DNA from: a virus
Taxonomy: Duplodnaviria; Heunggongvirae; Uroviricota; Caudoviricetes
Direction: 5' to 3' (one strand)
Virus record (IMG/VR): IMGVR_UViG_2609460218_000014
Coordinates: 1 to 44,080 of that record
Length of the DNA: 44,080 nucleotides
Shown: one piece after another, positions 2,631 to 26,391 of the stretch
How positions within the stretch are numbered: the stretch's first letter is position 1
Layout: every line of letters begins with the position of its first letter
Notes under the pieces: generated by a model
What the model was told of the DNA's origin: nothing
The model's input: only the letters and a program-made list of their open reading frames with translations
The model's database searches: none
Made by a program: the position numbers and the translations under genes

Positions 2631-3750
2631 CCTCTTCGAATCTTTGAGTTACGCCATCCCAACTGTAGTGATCAAACACAAAGTCCTGACCTTGCTTTGC
2701 AACTGCTGTTAATTCAGGATTCGCTAACGTTTTTAAAATATCGCTGCTTATGGAGTCTGCAGTCATAGGTTCTTTTAAATGGAATCCCGTAGTATTTTCT
2801 TTGACAAATTCCGTCATCCCCCCACGCGTACTCACTAAAACAGGCTTACCAGCACCCATAGCTTCAATTGCCACCATGCAAAATGGTTCCTGGAACTGGG
2901 AAGGAATGACGACTAAATCTGCCAGTGGGTAATAACAATGCATCTTTTCAGGCGGTATGCTTCCTAACATAATGCAACGATCCTTCAAACGTTTTGCAAT
3001 TTCCCTGACATTGCGTTGATATGCACCTTTGTCACTTTTACTCATTTCTGTATAATCACCAATCACAACTAATTTTAAATTTTTGTGAGCAGCGGCCAAT
3101 TTTTCGAATGATTGCATCAACAGCAATATGCCTTTGTCAGGGACGATACGCCCAGCATAAAAAATAATTTTCTCTTCAGGGGAGATATTAAGTTCGCTTC
3201 TAGTGATCGGCTGAAAATTAGATTGATAGGTTTCTAAATCAATTCCATTTGGTACAATCTCAATATCTGCATTTGCTAAATAAGATTGGTAATACTTTTT
3301 CAAGTATAAACTAGGCACTATCATTTTAACATTTTGCTCAAGCAATTTTGGTTCAAATGCATTATGCATATGTATAACCACTCTTGCCTGAGGAGCTCGC
3401 TTACGAATTTGAGTGTATAGCTTCATGCTATTATGAACTACAATAACACTTTCTTTCGTTATAGGAAAATCATGTGCAATATTCAATATTCTCTGTGAAT
3501 ATGGAAGAGGATCAAGTCTTGTCCATTTTTGAAATAACCGCTTATATATGCGACTGAATCCAACCCTATGAATACTACAATTATCATTAACAAAGGTGTA
3601 ATTTGAGTATCCTGGATTTTTGATACAAACAATACGATTTGGAAAATTGGTACGCTGAGCAACCTGATACATCCACGTTTCAACAGCAGCCGCTCCGCGA
3701 GGAGGAATTGAAAAAATAGGAGTAACCGTAAATATTATTTTATCAACCAT
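2608..3750 (-). CDS. LPS core glycosyltransferase, GT4-like family (WaaD/WaaK-like, distal gene of core operon)
   Basis: 380-aa ORF with the C-terminal motif pattern of retaining GT-B glycosyltransferases (...EPFCMVAIEAMGAGKPVLVSTRGG...); last gene of the waaQ operon, 3' end overlaps waaL convergently. Confidence 0.6.
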   Translation of the reverse strand: MVDKIIFTVTPIFSIPPRGAAAVETWMYQVAQRTNFPNRIVCIKNPGYSNYTFVNDNCSIHRVGFSRIYKRLFQKWTRLDPLPYSQRILNIAHDFPITKESVIVVHNSMKLYTQIRKRAPQARVVIHMHNAFEPKLLEQNVKMIVPSLYLKKYYQSYLANADIEIVPNGIDLETYQSNFQPITRSELNISPEEKIIFYAGRIVPDKGILLLMQSFEKLAAAHKNLKLVVIGDYTEMSKSDKGAYQRNVREIAKRLKDRCIMLGSIPPEKMHCYYPLADLVVIPSQFQEPFCMVAIEAMGAGKPVLVSTRGGMTEFVKENTTGFHLKEPMTADSISSDILKTLANPELTAVAKQGQDFVFDHYSWDGVTQRFEEVIHNWFE

Positions 3751-18100: not shown

Positions 18101-18964
18101 ATGATCCGCAGTATGACCGCCTACGCCCGGCGTGAAATCAAGGGTGAATGGGGGAGCGCAACCTGGGAAATGCGCTCGGTAAACCAGCGTTATCTGGAAA
18201 CTTACTTTCGTCTGCCGGAGCAGTTCCGTAGCCTTGAACCTGTCGTTCGCGAGCGTATTCGTTCTCGCCTGACGCGCGGTAAAGTGGAATGTANCCTGCG
18301 CTATGAGCCAGATGTTAGCGCACAAGGTGAGCTGATCCTCAATGAAAAACTGGCTAAACAGCTGGTAACTGCCGCGAACTGGGTAAAAATGCAGAGTGAC
18401 GAAGGGGAAATCAACCCGGTTGATATTCTGCGCTGGCCGGGCGTGATGGCAGNCCAGGAGCAGGATCTCGACGCCATTGCCGCTGAAATTCTCGCGGCGC
18501 TGGATGGTACGCTGGACGACTTTATTGTCGCGCGCGAAACCGAAGGTCAGGCACTGAAAGCATTGATCGAGCAGCGTCTGGAAGGCGTCACCGCCGAAGT
18601 GGTCAAAGTCCGCGCCCATATGCCGGAAATCCTGCAATGGCAGCGTGAGCGTCTGGTCGCGAAGCTGGAAGATGCTCAGGTTCAGTTGGAAAACAACCGT
18701 CTGGAGCAGGAGTTGGTTCTGCTGGCACAACGAATTGACGTTGCCGAAGAACTGGACCGCCTGGAAGCGCATGTCAAAGAGACCTACAACATTCTGAAGA
18801 AAAAAGAAGCCGTTGGTCGTCGTCTGGACTTTATGATGCAGGAATTCAACCGCGAGTCGAACACTCTTGCGTCGAAATCTATCAATGCCGAAGTGACAAA
18901 CTCCGCCATCGAGCTGAAAGTGTTGATTGAGCAGATGCGCGAGCAGATTCAGAACATTGAGTAG
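18101..18964 (+). CDS. yicC: YicC-family stress-induced protein
   Basis: 287 aa, MIRSMTAYARREIKGEWGSATWEMRSVNQRYLE...; conserved neighbour of rph. Confidence 0.9.
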   Translation: MIRSMTAYARREIKGEWGSATWEMRSVNQRYLETYFRLPEQFRSLEPVVRERIRSRLTRGKVECXLRYEPDVSAQGELILNEKLAKQLVTAANWVKMQSDEGEINPVDILRWPGVMAXQEQDLDAIAAEILAALDGTLDDFIVARETEGQALKALIEQRLEGVTAEVVKVRAHMPEILQWQRERLVAKLEDAQVQLENNRLEQELVLLAQRIDVAEELDRLEAHVKETYNILKKKEAVGRRLDFMMQEFNRESNTLASKSINAEVTNSAIELKVLIEQMREQIQNIE

Positions 18965-19140: not shown

Positions 19141-20396
19141 ATGGGCAAGCTAACAGACATTCAGATCAAGGCCTGGATAAAGGCCGGAACAAGGTTCGAG
19201 GGTAAATCGGACGGTAACGGTTTATATTTGCGCTATCGCACTACTGACACGTCCCCATCATGGCGTTTCCGCTACCGCTTCGCTGGCAAGCCTCGTGTTA
19301 TGACAATTGGCGCGTATGGCGTTATCTCACTGGCTAAAGCCGGGAGATCACCCGAGAGCTGGCTGCTCGTGTTTCTCTGGGGTATGACGTTGCCGGTGAG
19401 AAGCAGGAGCGAAAAGCCGCATTAAAAGCCCAGTTGGAAGCCGACCAGCATGACAAAACAGTGTCCGAAGTAGCTGAAGACTATTTTAAGAAGAAAGTAC
19501 TGGGTACATGGAAACACCCCGACATCCTCCGCCGTCGTCTGGCGAAAGACATTAATCCTCGCATAGGTCAGAAAAAGGTTAAGGACGTCAAACCCCGAGA
19601 TATTGATGCCTTGCTTCAGGCCATCTTAAAACGTGGTGCGCCATCTATTGCTAATGACGTCTTGCGCTGGATACGTCGTATCTTTGACCATGCGATCAAG
19701 CTGGGGATGATTGAGGTTAACCCCGCTGCTGCCTTTGATATGAGTGACGCGGGCGGTAAGGAAACATCTCGTGAACGTTGGTTAACCAGGCAGGAACTGG
19801 TTCAATTCTTTGAAGCCATGCGAATGGCAAAAGGCTTTAGTCGTGAGAACGAGTTAACTCTAAAGCTGCTGCTGGTCACTTGCGTGAGAAAGATGGAACT
19901 GTGCGCCGCACGCTGGAGCGAGTTCGATTTAGCCAACGGCATTTGGTACTTACCGGGCGAACGCACAAAGACAGGCGACGGGATTGATATTCCACTGCCA
20001 AAACAGGCTATCGAATGGTTGGAGGAGCTGCGCCTTCTCTCTTGTAACAGCAAATGGGTATTACCTGCGCGAAAACAACAGCATCGCATGATCCCCCATA
20101 TTCAGGAAAGCACCCTACCCGTTGCGCTGGCGAAGGTTAAGCATGAGATGCCTGGTGTACCGAACTTCACTATTCACGACCTTAGGCGCACCGCACGCAC
20201 CCATCTCGAAGCGTTAGGTGTGAATCCCATTGTTGCTGAGCGTTGCCTTAATCACCGCATCAAAGGCGTCGAGGGCATCTACAACCGTCACCAATATTTA
20301 AACGAACGGCGGGAAGCGCTGGCCATGCTGGGCAACCTGATGGAAGCCTTAGAGCGTGGCGAGGAATACAACGTTCAACCATTGAGGAAAGCATGA
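19141..20396 (+). CDS. Tyrosine integrase, P4 family (arm-binding N-domain plus catalytic domain); frameshifted in this sequence
   Basis: Track ORFs 19141..19425 and 19434..20396; N-terminus KLTDIQIKAW...GNGLYLRYRTT...WRFRYRFAGK and C-terminal HDLRRTARTHL...YNRHQYLNERR are typical. One missing C in a CCC run near 19337 would restore ISLAKAREITRELAARVSLGYDVAGEKQERKAA and a single ~418-aa ORF. Confidence 0.85.
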
Positions 20397-21940: not shown

Positions 21941-23377
21941 ATGTCAGAGAATACTGTAACTCACCTACCTCTCAAGTCAACCATGAAAGAACCGGTGTCC
22001 GGTGCGCCAGCACAGGCGGCTAAGTATGATTCTATGCCGCTGGCAAAGATGCAACCCGGCGAACGCATCGCCGCGTTTGTTGCAAAGACTGGCCGTTATT
22101 CACTTCATCGGGCAAGTGATACCTTGTACCGTTTTGATGGTGCTATCTGGCGGGCAATCAGCGATTCAGCTGTGAAAAGTGATTTAGCAGACTTCTACAT
22201 GACCCGCGGCTTTCAACCCGGTGCCAGTGTCTTTGAAAGCGACGCGCGAGCGCTGAAGATATATTCATCGACCAAACAATCTCCAGAGATGGCGGAACCA
22301 AAAGCCGGGGTAATCGCCTTTGCCAACGGCGTTTACTCAATCATAGACGGTTCATTTTCCAGCCATTGTGCGGAAAACTGGTTGCGCTCACATAACGGCA
22401 TAGACTATGCAGCAGCACTCCCCGGAGAGACACTGAGCGGCAGTGCCCCACATTTTAGCAAGTGGCTAGCGCACAATGCCGGTAATGATGAAGCGAAGGC
22501 CAAGCGGATACTGGCGGCTCTGTATATGGTTCTGACTCATCGCTACGAATGGCAGCTATACGTTGAGGTAACTGGCAAAGGTGGTAGCGGTAAGAGTGTA
22601 TTTATGTCTCTGTGCAGATTGCTATCAGGGGAAGACGGCTCAAAGGCTACAACCTTACACGCGCTGCGCGACTCAATGGCTCTAGAAACATTGATTGATG
22701 CCAGGCTCATTACCATGAGTGATCAGCCCGCATATAGCGGCGATTGTGCGAATTTAAAAGCCATTACCGGCGGTGACTCCATTTTCATCAATCCCAAGTA
22801 CAAGAAGGGGTTCGATGCGAAAATTAACGCCGTTGTAGTCGTGGCTAACAACGAACCTGCTGTATTTACTGAGCATAACGGGGGCATATCCCGCCGCCGG
22901 GTACTGTTTAAGTTTGGTGAACCGGTAGAAAGACCTGACCCTGAGTTTATGGCGAAGATAAAAACTGAATTGCCGGTAATCGTGCGTCACTTGCTCAAGG
23001 AATTGGATGATACTACCGCAAAAAGTCTGCTCATCCAGCAACGAGACTCAGAGGAATCGTTTGACGCTAAAGCGGAGGCCAGTAGCATTTACTCCTTCGT
23101 TAAACACCTGGACCCACTGCCAGCGCCTACAGGTATGCGCATGGGTGGCAAGGCATCATCCTCAAACGCGGAGCGGCCCAGAGAGTTCCTTTACCATGCG
23201 TATTTGGCATTTATGCAATACAACGGGTTCCAGAATCCACTTTCGGTTCTGAAATTCAGGCAAGCTGTTATTGCGATAATGAAAGAGCGCGGGCACGAGT
23301 TCGCGGATAAAAGGGACTCCGTTGGTCTCCGCTACAACGTGGAGTTGGCCGAATCAGCCAGCGAATGGCTTCCGTAA
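21941..23377 (+). CDS. SF3 (D5/P4-type) replicative helicase / NTPase, the C-terminal domain family of phage-plasmid primases
   Basis: Track ORF 21902..23377; likely start MSENTVTHLPL; Walker A VTGKGGSGKSVF, Walker B-like LITMSD, sensor-like VVVVANNEP; directly upstream of the iteron region. Confidence 0.8.
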   Translation: MSENTVTHLPLKSTMKEPVSGAPAQAAKYDSMPLAKMQPGERIAAFVAKTGRYSLHRASDTLYRFDGAIWRAISDSAVKSDLADFYMTRGFQPGASVFESDARALKIYSSTKQSPEMAEPKAGVIAFANGVYSIIDGSFSSHCAENWLRSHNGIDYAAALPGETLSGSAPHFSKWLAHNAGNDEAKAKRILAALYMVLTHRYEWQLYVEVTGKGGSGKSVFMSLCRLLSGEDGSKATTLHALRDSMALETLIDARLITMSDQPAYSGDCANLKAITGGDSIFINPKYKKGFDAKINAVVVVANNEPAVFTEHNGGISRRRVLFKFGEPVERPDPEFMAKIKTELPVIVRHLLKELDDTTAKSLLIQQRDSEESFDAKAEASSIYSFVKHLDPLPAPTGMRMGGKASSSNAERPREFLYHAYLAFMQYNGFQNPLSVLKFRQAVIAIMKERGHEFADKRDSVGLRYNVELAESASEWLP

Positions 23378-23397
23378 CATACTTTCAACATTAAAAG

Positions 23398-23425
23398 CTG
23401 GGGCGCATGATTGCGCCCTTTTTTA
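23398..23425 (+). terminator. Intrinsic terminator after the helicase gene
   Basis: gggcgca-tgat-tgcgccc followed by tttttt. Confidence 0.7.
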
Positions 23426-23466
23426 ATTCCATCGATAGATCAGAATATTTAGNTTTTTTTATGAAA

Positions 23467-23690
23467 GTCCTACATGTCTTACACCAAATGAAATTAAATT
23501 ATATATAACAATAAATTAGATAATGTAGGACCTTAAAAATATCCTACACAGGTCCTACATAACTCCTGCACTCGAAGCCTCGTAGTGTAGGGTTTAAGGA
23601 AGCCCCTCGCCAGTCCTACACAAGTCCTGCACTTTCTAACAAATTGTTTTAAATGATTTTTTTAATGGAGAATGTAGGAGTGTAGGACAT
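23467..23690. repeat. Iteron cluster (about 8 copies of GTCCTACA / TGTAGGAC in both orientations) next to an AT-rich stretch: putative island replication origin
   Basis: Copies at about 23467, 23523, 23543, 23552, 23585, 23613, 23672, 23681; preceded by an AT-rich segment (23440-23520); no ORF of 60 aa or more on either strand between 23378 and 24087. Confidence 0.6.
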
Positions 23691-24195
23691 GAAGGACTTT
23701 CCAGGAAAAACTATATTTTGAATATTTGAGCCTAAAAAATGGACACCCTTGCGCTACGCGCCGCTAGGCAGGGAAAGTGGTTTTCATAACATGTATTTAA
23801 CAATCGCATTCCCATTCGGAACCAGCGGGCCGGAATGATCCTGATACAGGCGTTCAGCATGGAGTGAGAATCAACGTTTTTTGATGCCCTACTGACCCCA
23901 GATTAATCTTTGGTCGGTAGCGGGAAGCCTTCGTTCTGGTCAGGGTAATGTCAGGGTGATGCTTACGTTTTATGACTATTTTAGTTAGCAATAGTTAGCA
24001 ACCTACTCAAATCAAAACTTCTCAAAGTTAATTCCTAAAACGAAAAAGCCCCCACATTTCTGTAGGGGCCGTTTCGTCATTCTGCGCTTGATGGTCGGAA
24101 GGATGGCCGACAAATATATACTATCTCTTTATGTACTCACGAACCAGTACGATAGTACAATAAGCCGTCAATTCTTCAAAATGATGGTGATAGCG

Positions 24196-24588
24196 ATGAA
24201 CGAAGTAGATTCAATTCTGGCCGAGCAGAAAAGAGCCGCAGAACAACGCCGCTTGGCTAATGAGAAGAAGCGCCATCCATCCGGCCTGTACGCCGTTGGT
24301 GATGGGTGGTATGTGAAGCAAATCGAAGAGCTTCACTCCCCGCTTGGTCTTAGCAAGGTGGTTCTGGTAAGCCCTGATGATGTTTGTGTGAGATATCAGC
24401 GCCAATATGGCAAAGCACTCACCACTGACAAATTGAAGGAATGGAGCAGGGACGGGAACTTCCCTTTGCCGCGCTCTATTAATGGGGTTATCGGTTGGGA
24501 ATCGAATGTTGTGACCAATGGCCTGAATGAACTGAGCAAAGCAGCCGGTCGAGGTTATACCAGTATTACACGAGGGTTCGCACGATGA
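24196..24588 (+). CDS. Hypothetical protein (track ORF 24088..24588, 166 aa; likely start at MNEVD giving about 130 aa), first gene of cargo cassette
   Basis: Protein-like composition; SD-like ggtgat upstream of the internal ATG; stop overlaps the next ORF start (ATGA). No family recognised. Confidence 0.5.
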   Translation: MNEVDSILAEQKRAAEQRRLANEKKRHPSGLYAVGDGWYVKQIEELHSPLGLSKVVLVSPDDVCVRYQRQYGKALTTDKLKEWSRDGNFPLPRSINGVIGWESNVVTNGLNELSKAAGRGYTSITRGFAR

Positions 24589-24782
24589 GCAAAGAATCTG
24601 TAATGGCGGCATTGAGAAAGGCGCGTGAAGGCAATATCTTTGGCGGTACTGGTCAGGCCGAATTTAACAAAAATTTTTACGCTGGCCGCGTCACCAAAAC
24701 AGATGGTGTTAGTAAGACCGACAGTAACGAGCCGATGAACCAAAAGGCATTTAATGCCCGGTTCTATGCGGGGAAATCATGA
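24585..24782 (+). CDS. Hypothetical small protein (65 aa) with internal duplicated N-x-x-F-Y-A-G-[RK] motif
   Basis: ATGA overlap with the upstream ORF and SD gaggg; NKNFYAGRV and NARFYAGKS repeat within the protein. Confidence 0.5.
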   Translation: MSKESVMAALRKAREGNIFGGTGQAEFNKNFYAGRVTKTDGVSKTDSNEPMNQKAFNARFYAGKS

Positions 24783-24841
24783 CTGAGGCATATGCGCTCT
24801 GTGTGATGCTGTACTGCTACCTGATGCTTATCTGCCCGTAA
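24779..24841 (+). CDS. Possible 20-aa hydrophobic Cys-rich peptide (MTEAYALCVMLYCYLMLICP)
   Basis: Start overlaps the ORF65 stop (ATGA), SD-like gggga upstream, followed by a hairpin terminator. Too short for any compositional statistics. Confidence 0.3.
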   Translation: MTEAYALCVMLYCYLMLICP

Positions 24842-24860
24842 CCTTCCCTCACTGCCAAGC

Positions 24861-24884
24861 GCCGCCGAAAGGCGGTTTCTTTTG
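24861..24884 (+). terminator. Putative short intrinsic terminator/attenuator after the coupled ORFs
   Basis: ccgcc-gaaa-ggcgg (GNRA-type loop) followed by tttcttttg. Confidence 0.4.
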
Positions 24885-24901
24885 ACCTGATGGAGTCTGT
24901 C

Positions 24902-25183
24902 ATGCTGAATGTGAACCGCTTGCCCAACAGCACCCGCCTACAGATTGCCGCCGCTATTGCTGAAGAGGTTTACGCGCTGGATCTGGATGATGAGGCGTTA
25001 ATTCATGAGCTGCGTCGTTATGGATTCAGCCAGGCTTATGCGGAAGCAATGACTTTCAGATTTATGACGCCAGCCTTTGAAATCGCAGATCCACGGCGCG
25101 AACGTAAAACAAAAATGCCAGCGCCCACCTCTCANCCCGAATGGGTTTTTGTTGATAATGTTTTAATGAAGATCACGGCGTGA
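24902..25183 (+). CDS. Hypothetical protein (track ORF 24890..25183, 97 aa; likely start at MLNVNRL)
   Basis: SD ggag 9 nt upstream of the second ATG; contains one N; last ORF before the island's right end. No family recognised. Confidence 0.5.
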   Translation: MLNVNRLPNSTRLQIAAAIAEEVYALDLDDEALIHELRRYGFSQAYAEAMTFRFMTPAFEIADPRRERKTKMPAPTSXPEWVFVDNVLMKITA

Positions 25184-25382
25184 CTTACACAAAATTACAA
25201 TTGGTCATAAATCACACAATAAAAATTGTAATCCCTGTAAATCCATGTACCCATACGTGTACACAAGCAAAACAAGAAAAACAAAAATCATTTAAATATC
25301 AATACATATAACCCACAATTCAATATTCAGATTCAATATTGAGTAACTCGTAACACTAATTCTTACTTTTCAGCCTTCACAA

Positions 25383-25416
25383 ATGCCGCCCACTCAAACA
25401 GAGCGGCATTTTTCTT
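25383..25416 (+). terminator. Putative intrinsic terminator near the right end of the island
   Basis: atgccgc-(13-nt loop)-gcggcat followed by tttttct. Confidence 0.4.
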
Positions 25417-25503
25417 CCCCGCAACTTCAATTCTGTTTTGCGTGCCTGCTCCAGATTTTGCGATGTTTTTTTGCCCAGCACACTGAGAACGTGAGATACT
25501 CAC

Positions 25504-25523
25504 AACTGTATATAAATACAGTT
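25504..25523 (+). promoter_or_regulatory. LexA (SOS) box in the dinD promoter
   Basis: aactgtatataaatacagtt, a perfect palindrome matching the CTGT-N8-ACAG LexA consensus, about 45 bp upstream of the dinD start. Confidence 0.85.
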
Positions 25524-25566
25524 ACAGATTTACTTTCTTTGCAATCGATATCACATGGAGTGGGCA

Positions 25567-26391
25567 ATGAACGAACATCATCAACCTTTTGAAGAAATAC
25601 GGCATTATGGCACTGAAGGGCAAGAATTTTGGTCAGCTAGAGAATTGGCACCGTTACTGGATTATCGGGACTGGCGCAATTTTCAAAAGGTACTGGCCCG
25701 CGCGACTCAAGCGTGCGAAGCCAGCAATCAAGCTGCATCTGACCATTTCGTTGAAACCACCAAAATGGTTGTATTAGGTTCAGGGGCTCAACGAGAACTT
25801 GAAGATGTTCATCTCTCCCGCTATGCCTGTTACCTGGTAGTACAAAACGGCGACCCTGCGAAACCGGTTATTGCGGCAGGGCAAACTTATTTTGCTATCC
25901 AGACCCGACGGCAGGAGCTGGCTGACGATGAAGCTTTCAGGCAACTTCGTGAAGACGAAAAGCGTCTTTTTCTGAGAAATGAATTGAAAGAACATAACAA
26001 ACAATTGGTTGAGGCAGCGCAGCAAGCTGGGGGAGCGACAGCTATCGATTTCGCCATATTTCAGAATCATGGTTACCGGGGGCTGTATGGTGGATTAGAT
26101 CAGAAAGCTATTCATCAGCGGAAGGGGCTGAAAAAGAATCAGAAGATCCTGGATCATATGGGTTCAACAGAACTGGCGGCTAATCTCTTTCGAGCTACCC
26201 AAACAGAAGAAAAACTCAAGCGGGATGGCGTGAATTCAAAACAGCAAGCAAACACCACACACTTTGACGTGGGTCGCAAGGTGAGGCAAACCATTCAGGA
26301 ACTTGGCGGAACCATGCCTGAGGAGTTGCCGACCCCGCAGGTCAGCATCAAGCAGTTGGAAAACAGTGTAAAAATTACAGAGAAGAAATAG
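25567..26391 (+). CDS. dinD: DNA damage-inducible protein D
   Basis: Track ORF 25555..26391; MNEHHQPFEEIRHYGTEGQEFWSARELAPLLDYRDWRNF... matches DinD as recalled; LexA box upstream. Confidence 0.9.
   Translation: MNEHHQPFEEIRHYGTEGQEFWSARELAPLLDYRDWRNFQKVLARATQACEASNQAASDHFVETTKMVVLGSGAQRELEDVHLSRYACYLVVQNGDPAKPVIAAGQTYFAIQTRRQELADDEAFRQLREDEKRLFLRNELKEHNKQLVEAAQQAGGATAIDFAIFQNHGYRGLYGGLDQKAIHQRKGLKKNQKILDHMGSTELAANLFRATQTEEKLKRDGVNSKQQANTTHFDVGRKVRQTIQELGGTMPEELPTPQVSIKQLENSVKITEKK

Follow-up and report, generated by a model that had tools for sequence, protein, structure and literature searches.

Background

Several small hydrophobic proteins of the enterobacterial inner membrane, such as KdpF, CydX, AcrZ and MgtS, are produced from mini-open reading frames (ORFs) located within operons. 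Peptides of comparable size are found among type I toxins: Ibs toxins, 18–19 amino acids (aa) long, are akin in length and hydrophobicity to the peptide described here, and the mok/hok system depends on the translation of an overlapping upstream frame. A short product of a different kind is TnaC, the 24-aa arrest leader peptide of tnaCAB, which needs UGA and release factor 2 (RF2), and masks a Rho site (PMC8450073). As to the mobile elements concerned, phage-inducible chromosomal islands (PICIs) of Gram-negative bacteria, such as EcCICFT073, have a typical size of 12–15 kb (PMC6092414, PMC6739421). The locus reported here is a 20-codon ORF, indicated below as the micropeptide ORF, carried by a satellite-like island in the IMG/VR virus record IMGVR_UViG_2609460218_000014; the whole stretch analyzed, 44,080 nucleotides (nt) long, is called the window. 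The ORF starts at the end of a small gene, ORF65, and is followed by a hairpin and by a further gene, ORF93.

Results

Conservation of the reading frame

The micropeptide ORF (24779..24841, plus strand) opens with ATG and contains 20 codons, followed by a TAA stop (24839-24841); the product, MTEAYALCVMLYCYLMLICP, ends in Pro-stop, the preceding residue being Cys in the window. The ATG (24779-24781) overlaps the TGA stop of ORF65 (24780-24782), forming ATGA at 24779-24782; this overlap had been pointed out in an earlier note on this DNA. A single ORF of 20 codons is by itself not above chance, as shown by the count of 143 ORFs, each with 20 aa or more, in or across the surrounding 9 kb, and a chance ORF was among the possibilities listed in that note. 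The case for a gene comes from the comparison of related loci.

The DNA upstream of every reachable ORF93 homolog was collected, which gave nine distinct alleles of the small ORF, originating from E. coli, Citrobacter and metagenomes. Few further alleles came from scanning species-representative genomes, metagenomes, viral contigs, and phage and plasmid records. Over the ORF, pairwise nucleotide identity is 65% on average, with a minimum of 53% (56–78% relative to the window allele), the same as or below that of the flanking genes. In all nine alleles the ORF is 18–20 codons long, begins with an ATG that overlaps the preceding stop and ends in Pro-stop. The overlap is retained through two architectures, ATGA and TGATG, and the stop codon is TAA in six alleles, TGA in three. 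The other five frames contain stops in some alleles, and no opposite-strand frame is open in all of them.

Variability at codon positions 1, 2 and 3 is 21, 16 and 30, respectively, and conserved residues are written in different ways: Arg19 by all four CGN codons (CGC, CGG, CGT, CGA), Pro20 by CCG, CCC and CCT, Ala6 and Leu15 by several synonymous codons each. Summed over allele pairs, the proportion of synonymous differences (pS) is 0.67 and that of nonsynonymous ones (pN) 0.30, corresponding to a pN/pS of 0.44 and to a Jukes-Cantor corrected dN/dS of 0.22; the two shifted frames, where stops are present, score 1.29 and 1.26. None of 2000 alignment-column shuffles reaches the observed pN/pS, the shuffled mean being 0.88. 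Synonymous divergence matches that of the neighboring genes, ORF65 (pS 0.57, pN/pS 0.32, seven alleles) and ORF93 (pS 0.65, pN/pS 0.25 overall and 0.11 over the first 55 codons), and synonymous sites of the micropeptide are nearly saturated. The check suggested in the earlier note, conservation of the frame in homologous islands in terms of synonymous versus nonsynonymous change, is thus positive, and for this reason the chance ORF is rejected: judged from the pattern of substitution, 24779-24841 is a genuine protein-coding micro-gene, subject to purifying selection at the amino acid level.

Signals for translation initiation are also kept. A Shine-Dalgarno (SD)-like G-run is present within the last codons of ORF65, and in most alleles ends 4–5 nt upstream of the micropeptide ATG. 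The predicted anti-SD duplex energy before the ATG ranges from -3.8 to -8.5 kcal/mol, at the same spacing, in 9 out of 9 alleles, as compared to a mean of -2.1 for random 20-mers from the window and to -3.4 kcal/mol for ORF65 homologs without the small ORF.

The gene has escaped annotation. In RefSeq nothing is annotated at its position in any carrier genome examined, and none of the seven 20-aa alleles is present as a called protein in a collection of ~15 billion sequences. A search of six alleles against Pfam and NCBIfam, at E up to 10, produced no family match; Rfam has no match over the site, and a full-text search of the literature with the peptide sequence gave nothing. As gene callers rarely report ORFs under ~30 codons, absence from the databases is expected.

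The frame might still be maintained for reasons other than its product: ribosome traffic past the ORF65 stop may be useful, for example for mRNA stability, or the constraint may act on nucleotides, or the ORF may be untranslated altogether. Such an explanation would fit the chance expectation given above, the disrupted alleles found in several genomes (see below) and the failure of any annotation pipeline or protein collection to call the ORF. It is regarded as improbable: purifying selection is specific to the micropeptide frame; hydrophobicity, length, Pro-stop and start overlap are kept despite near-saturated synonymous sites; neither a conserved RNA structure over the ORF nor an open antisense frame is found.

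In the window, the ORF could also be seen as an N-terminal extension of ORF93, produced by stop-codon read-through, since the two share a frame (position modulo 3 is 2 for both 24779 and 24902), with the TAA as the sole intervening stop. Moreover, in two assemblies the TAA is replaced by CAA, resulting in a 134-aa fusion. In other alleles, however, the small ORF is offset from ORF93 by +1 or +2, so that the relative frame may be 0, 1 or 2, with an intervening spacer of 58–71 nt. This variability indicates that the small ORF is an independent coding unit, rather than a piece of ORF93, and refutes read-through extension as a general mechanism; fusion requires an allele in which the small ORF and ORF93 have a common frame. 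The fusion products would in addition need translation through the terminator hairpin, and are single-sample variants. Overall, extension of ORF93 is considered extremely improbable.

Character of the peptide

All alleles encode an uninterrupted hydrophobic core of 14–15 residues, with a Kyte-Doolittle mean of 1.5–2.4, usually flanked by Met-x-(Glu/Asp) at the N-terminus and by (Arg/Cys)-Pro at the C-terminus. Charged or amide residues account for only 1 of the 133 core positions, whereas the counts for the other frames are 28 of 131 and 27 of 140. An acidic residue is found at position 2 or 3 in eight of the nine alleles, the exception being L018, and Arg19 is similarly present in 8 out of 9. 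M1, A6, C13, L15 and P20 are invariant, Y12, M16 and R19 nearly so, the C-terminal half being the best conserved part; variable positions swap solely among V, L, I, M, A, T, C, Y, F and W.

The best reading, held with moderate confidence, is that of a translationally coupled membrane micropeptide acting in trans; it is preferred mainly because the hydrophobic character, beyond the particular residues, is conserved. According to this model, ribosomes terminating on ORF65 would re-initiate at the overlapping ATG, and the peptide would be made together with ORF65. As a single short helix it would then insert into the inner membrane, where its action in trans might affect a membrane protein, or the integrity of the membrane itself, while the satellite goes through its induced cycle. 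The conserved hairpin, located ~20 nt downstream, would end or attenuate the ORF130-ORF65-micropeptide transcript (ORF130 being the gene preceding ORF65), and ORF93 would be expressed only from read-through transcripts.

A number of observations weigh against a membrane peptide. A core of 14–15 residues is short for a membrane span; in the window allele, which is the commonest one, Cys replaces the otherwise conserved Arg19; the contiguous C-terminal motif Y-C-x-L-M-x-x-R-P-stop, with its invariant Pro-stop, would also be expected of a cis-acting nascent peptide; and the nine alleles are a small set, representing about five independent lineages. In addition, broken and fused copies exist. A 1-nt deletion (GCGCTC to GCCTC) shortens the ORF to eight codons, MTEAYASV-stop, in 6 of 36 complete E. 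coli genomes (two sequence-checked, four inferred from the same 130-nt match) and in three further assemblies, on different ORF65 backgrounds. In the two single-sample assemblies mentioned above, the change from stop to Gln joins the micropeptide, the translated hairpin region and ORF93 into one 134-aa product. Since frameshifted and fused copies occur, the full-length peptide must be dispensable, at least in the short term. In the deletion allele the new TGA overlaps an internal ATG (TGATG), from which MLYCYLMLICP-stop could still arise by re-initiation.

Within the membrane-peptide model, a sub-case is that of a type I-kind toxin, similar to Ibs, Ldr or Hok, acting as the abortive-infection or killing effector of the satellite. 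A likeness to small membrane toxins had been proposed in the earlier note, and part of it holds: size, hydrophobicity and the conserved start/stop coupling fit a small membrane peptide, and the core is hydrophobic in every allele. The part concerning toxins finds no such correspondence, as the Pfam and NCBIfam search includes no small-toxin match and no partner antisense RNA is indicated: consensus scans, which are weak evidence, show no promoter-like or terminator-like site on the minus strand in 24779-24900. Furthermore, the gene is co-directional within an operon, rather than part of a stand-alone toxin-antitoxin cassette, and frameshifted and fused alleles are tolerated. A toxin is therefore held to be unlikely.

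The downstream hairpin and the ORF93 leader

The hairpin with a GNRA loop, followed by a T-run, noticed earlier on, is confirmed: it resembles an intrinsic terminator and is composed of six pairs, five of them G-C, starting ~20 nt after the micropeptide TAA. When eight alleles are analyzed by RNAalifold, this 6-bp hairpin is the only conserved RNA structure: in two sequences one C:G pair is changed to U:A on both sides, and the loop, when changed from GAAA to GCAA, stays GNRA. No conserved antiterminator or alternative structure is predicted, nor any conserved structure over the micropeptide ORF; the single-sequence fold of the region is unremarkable (z = 0.41). The distance from the stop to the conserved motif flanking the hairpin is 17–29 nt across alleles, and the hairpin lies as far from the stop as is usual for a gene and its terminator. 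The SD of ORF93 lies 6–9 nt after the U-tract; no promoter fits between hairpin and SD, and ORF93 would thus have to come from transcripts passing the hairpin. The hairpin also marks a mosaic boundary, the same small-ORF allele being joined to different ORF93 leaders in L018 and L037.

This arrangement suggests a weaker rival to the membrane micropeptide, namely a cis-acting leader or arrest peptide for ORF93: the nascent YCxLMxxRP would slow termination at the Pro-stop, and the lingering ribosome, placed 17–29 nt before the hairpin and on the C-rich spacer, would modulate terminator read-through or translation of ORF93. Once released, the peptide would have no function. A regulatory leader peptide was also among the options of the earlier note, which suggested that the peptide could be the effector or the sensor of the cassette. 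The position of the ORF, directly upstream of a conserved terminator-like hairpin and of a gene with no room for a promoter, is in agreement with such a role, as are the invariant Pro-stop, written with three Pro codons, the Arg19 of eight alleles, written with four, and the marked conservation of the C-terminal half. ORF65 homologs in elements lacking ORF93 and hairpin likewise lack the small ORF, and the product that the deletion allele could yield by re-initiation retains a Pro-stop ending. A precedent is offered by TnaC, where peptidyl-tRNA-Pro is held at the stop and controls a terminator just downstream (PMC8450073). If true, the combination of a Pro-stop leader with a terminator behind it would make for very compact regulation.

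Other results do not favor this explanation, which is considered rather unlikely. The hairpin is the only conserved helix, no antiterminator accompanies it, and the fold has no excess energy; for the same reasons, classical attenuation of the trpL/hisL type was discarded. The spacing between stop and hairpin varies, and exceeds what steric interference would allow, since only ~12–15 nt downstream are shielded by a ribosome positioned on the stop, short of the hairpin in this locus. As both TAA and TGA serve as stops, RF2 specificity does not apply to the site, and the uniform hydrophobicity of the variable positions, with a single polar residue in 133, is not needed by a peptide acting in the tunnel. 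Masking of the ORF93 SD by the pyrimidine tract following the stop, a control of the ermC/secM-secA type, was also evaluated. With a generic downstream sequence, spacer-SD pairing is seen in five of eight alleles; when the real downstream sequence of each allele is used, the mean pairing probability is 0.39, versus 0.32 for shuffled, composition-matched spacers (p ~0.33). Masking, predicted in some alleles, does not exceed the control and was not favored.

A distinctly unlikely possibility is that of a nascent-chain sensor, where the (R/C)-Pro-stop would stall termination before the intrinsic terminator, gating read-through into ORF93 or its translation. Such gating could respond to a membrane or translation state changing on helper-phage infection and, if true, would tie late-gene expression of the satellite to ribosome behavior, with no need for a protein regulator. 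The membrane micropeptide remains the preferred reading, and its genomic context is described below.

Features of the locus and of its neighbors

Coordinates are reported in Table 1, together with the nine alleles. Columns under "Position" refer to the window, unless another sequence is named.

Table 1. Sequence features of the micropeptide locus, its alleles and the surrounding island
Feature	Position	Strand	Remarks
Micropeptide gene	24779..24841	+	nine diverged alleles keep frame, length, start overlap and Pro-stop
SD-like G-run GGGGAAA	24770..24776	+	within last ORF65 codons; predicted anti-SD pairing ends 4 nt before ATG
Pyrimidine-rich, G-poor spacer, stop to hairpin	24842..24860	+	CCTTCCCTCACTGCCAAGC; C-rich in all alleles
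Intrinsic-terminator-like hairpin and U-tract	24861..24883	+	GCCGCC-GAAA-GGCGGT at 24861-24876, then TTCTTTT; terminator scan
ORF93 SD, GGAG	24892-24895	+	6 nt before ATG; read from sequence; kept in all alleles
ORF93	24902..25183	+	starts 60 nt after micropeptide stop in the window
ORF65	24585..24782	+	conserved C-terminus ...FNxxFYAGK[S/A]; RefSeq homologs are hypothetical proteins
ORF130	24196..24588	+	first module gene; ATG start common to nine aligned homologs
Allele, window			MTEAYALCVMLYCYLMLICP
Allele, L003			MMEAYALCLMTYCYLMVYRP
Allele, L022			MTEAYALCLMTYCYLMVYRP
Allele, L010			MTEAYAACALLYCYLIVIRP
Allele, L026			MTEAYAACALLYCCLMVMRP
Allele, L012			MSEANAFCVLLYCLLMLIRP
Allele, L018			MIGTFALCALCFCWLMALRP
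Allele, L016			MDIAAALLAYCWLMTVRP
Allele, L024			MDIAAALLAYCWLMAVRP
Stop-to-Gln fusions	L014 ~2878-3294; L025 3001-3405 (P0001)		two independent assemblies
ORF130-ORF65 pair alone	L005 6612-7207; L038 1473-2068; L009 3001-3201		without micropeptide, hairpin and ORF93
Extra genes in larger relatives	L018 465-764; L039 86-385; L041 3503-3802		between replicase and module
yicC	18101-18964		left of the island
Integrase	19141-20396		split into 94-aa and 320-aa ORFs; 1-nt deletion in C-run near 19340, relative to the intact 418-aa gene of strain 30EVA2
Gap	23378-24195		no conserved ORF
Iterons	23454-23710		GTCCTACA; at least eight direct and inverted copies
Short tandem repeats	23939-23960; 23982-24001		within gap
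Terminator-like hairpin	23400-23419	+	bounds gap
Terminator-like hairpin	24070-24047	-	bounds gap
STnc410 (Rfam)	23304-23448		weak match: 24.5 bits, gathering 50, E = 0.015
dinD	25555-26391		right of the island

The micropeptide belongs to a conserved 3' module, in the order ORF130-ORF65-micropeptide-hairpin-ORF93. For ORF130, a 166-aa reading from TTG 24088 is not shared by homologs, the conserved start corresponding to M37 of that reading (130 aa); RefSeq start calls for the homologs range from 130 to 161 aa between genomes. ORF65, in the region of 24621, lacks in the window one copy of a 9-nt direct repeat, GCGCGTGAA, and is 65 aa long, versus 68 aa (KAREAREG) in most relatives; the difference is an in-frame repeat-slippage polymorphism. 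ORF93 begins with a three-helix domain, continues with a linker that is basic and disordered, and closes with a beta-hairpin. Its AlphaFold2 model, where the predicted local distance difference test score (pLDDT) is ~90 at residues 9–55, has no significant fold match, only non-significant similarity to helix-turn-helix (HTH) folds. No sequence match was found for ORF130, ORF65 or ORF93 in Pfam, PHROG or PDB; the search of the island's three small proteins against solved structures, by sequence and at E up to 1, which should include the deposited RppC, was likewise negative.

The module recurs behind three replication modules (D5/DUF5906; toprim plus DUF927; DUF3987/YfjI) and at two chromosomal sites, yicC/dinD and beside ubiV. 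Carriers are ~38 of 5426 complete E. coli genomes, as well as Kluyvera, Shimwellia and Citrobacter; the module is absent from phage records, and ORF93 from plasmid records. This recurrence indicates that the small ORF does not belong to variable cargo; nor does it close the gene array. The location at the "end of the cargo operon", claimed in the earlier note, is therefore wrong in detail: ORF93 follows at 24902, and the module is a conserved core of satellite-like islands.

The ORF130-ORF65 pair is also found alone, in a 13.3-kb circular Shigella 'plasmid' (NZ_CP055032.1), carrying parA, a baseplate-like gene and an integrase, in a copy inserted in caiC, and in an IMG/VR contig. The pair is thus a separable module, possibly of phage-plasmid ancestry. 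Larger relatives of the island contain extra genes, for a membrane protein with a TM2 domain and for a DUF5681 protein accompanied by a partner of 52–54 aa; the island in the window is a minimal version, without TM2-domain and DUF5681 genes.

The host island

The window is E. coli chromosome, with an island of ~6.4 kb between yicC and dinD. In E. coli K-12, the usual strain for small-protein mapping, these two genes are presumably adjacent. The island contains, in this order, a tyrosine integrase, a 179-aa ORF, an AlpA-type HTH protein, a zinc-ribbon primase fragment, a D5/DUF5906 helicase, a gap of ~800 nt and the 3' module. The 1-nt deletion in the integrase, along with an N at 25136 inside ORF93, indicates either draft-quality sequence or an immobilised, decaying element. 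The gap, with its iterons and tandem repeats, is probably the iteron-type replication origin of the satellite. The layout described for PICIs (PMC6092414), int - alpA - pri/rep - ori, unidirectional, with no structural or lysis genes and with its own attachment (att) site, is also that of this island, which, to judge from its genes, appears to be a member of a PICI-like satellite family. A search for att repeats found no exact direct repeat of 10 nt or longer at the island flanks.

Two side observations concern the same region. A weak match to STnc410, an enterobacterial small RNA, scores below the gathering threshold and spans the 3' end of the helicase and its terminator. Two Campylobacter phage records (MG065686.1, MG065691.1) share ~272 nt, 95.6% identical to 25328-25599 of the window, upstream of dinD; contamination or chimeric assembly in those records is the likeliest explanation.

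Discussion

The micropeptide is a real, previously unannotated micro-gene, of a kind for which examples exist, as small hydrophobic peptides from coupled mini-ORFs are already known. Standard annotation does not see genes under ~30 codons. The micropeptide gene nonetheless behaves in evolutionary tests as its neighbors do, and is the fourth conserved component of an otherwise uncharacterised four-gene module. The module, which must hold whatever serves the satellite in exploiting a helper phage or in resisting it, is all that this minimal, ~6.4 kb element carries beyond integration and replication genes. If one of its components is a membrane micropeptide, a step directed at the envelope may be suspected, for instance exclusion, lysis timing or killing. 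In any case, the micropeptide is a cheap, well-defined experimental target, both for satellite biology and for small-protein function.

The island shares with Gram-negative PICIs the integrase, AlpA, the primase/helicase, an iteron-bearing origin, a short rightward module of small genes and a site unused by prophages; in contrast to them, it is only ~6.4 kb long, under half of the usual size.

TnaC ends in the same residues, Arg-Pro-stop, as most micropeptide alleles, and the likeness extends to a short ORF of conserved amino acid sequence, followed by a pyrimidine-rich stretch and by a transcription terminator before the next gene. Unlike TnaC, the micropeptide ORF uses TAA or TGA stops, faces an intrinsic terminator with a U-tract, after a C-rich spacer of only 17–29 nt, would start by coupling to an upstream gene instead of occupying a transcript-start position, and encodes a uniformly hydrophobic product.

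Type I toxins (Ibs, Ldr, Hok) are similar in size and hydrophobicity, and the overlapping upstream frame is reminiscent of hok/mok; the differences are the lack of antisense RNA signals and of any family match, and the embedding in a conserved multi-gene module.

Relative to KdpF, CydX, AcrZ and MgtS, the micropeptide stands at the extreme low end of size (18–20 aa), has no sequence relationship with any of them, and is found on a mobile satellite-like island, not in a housekeeping operon. With these proteins it shares a very short, hydrophobic product, predicted to form a single helix, a co-directional position within an operon, a tightly juxtaposed or overlapping neighbor, and the tendency to be missed by annotation.

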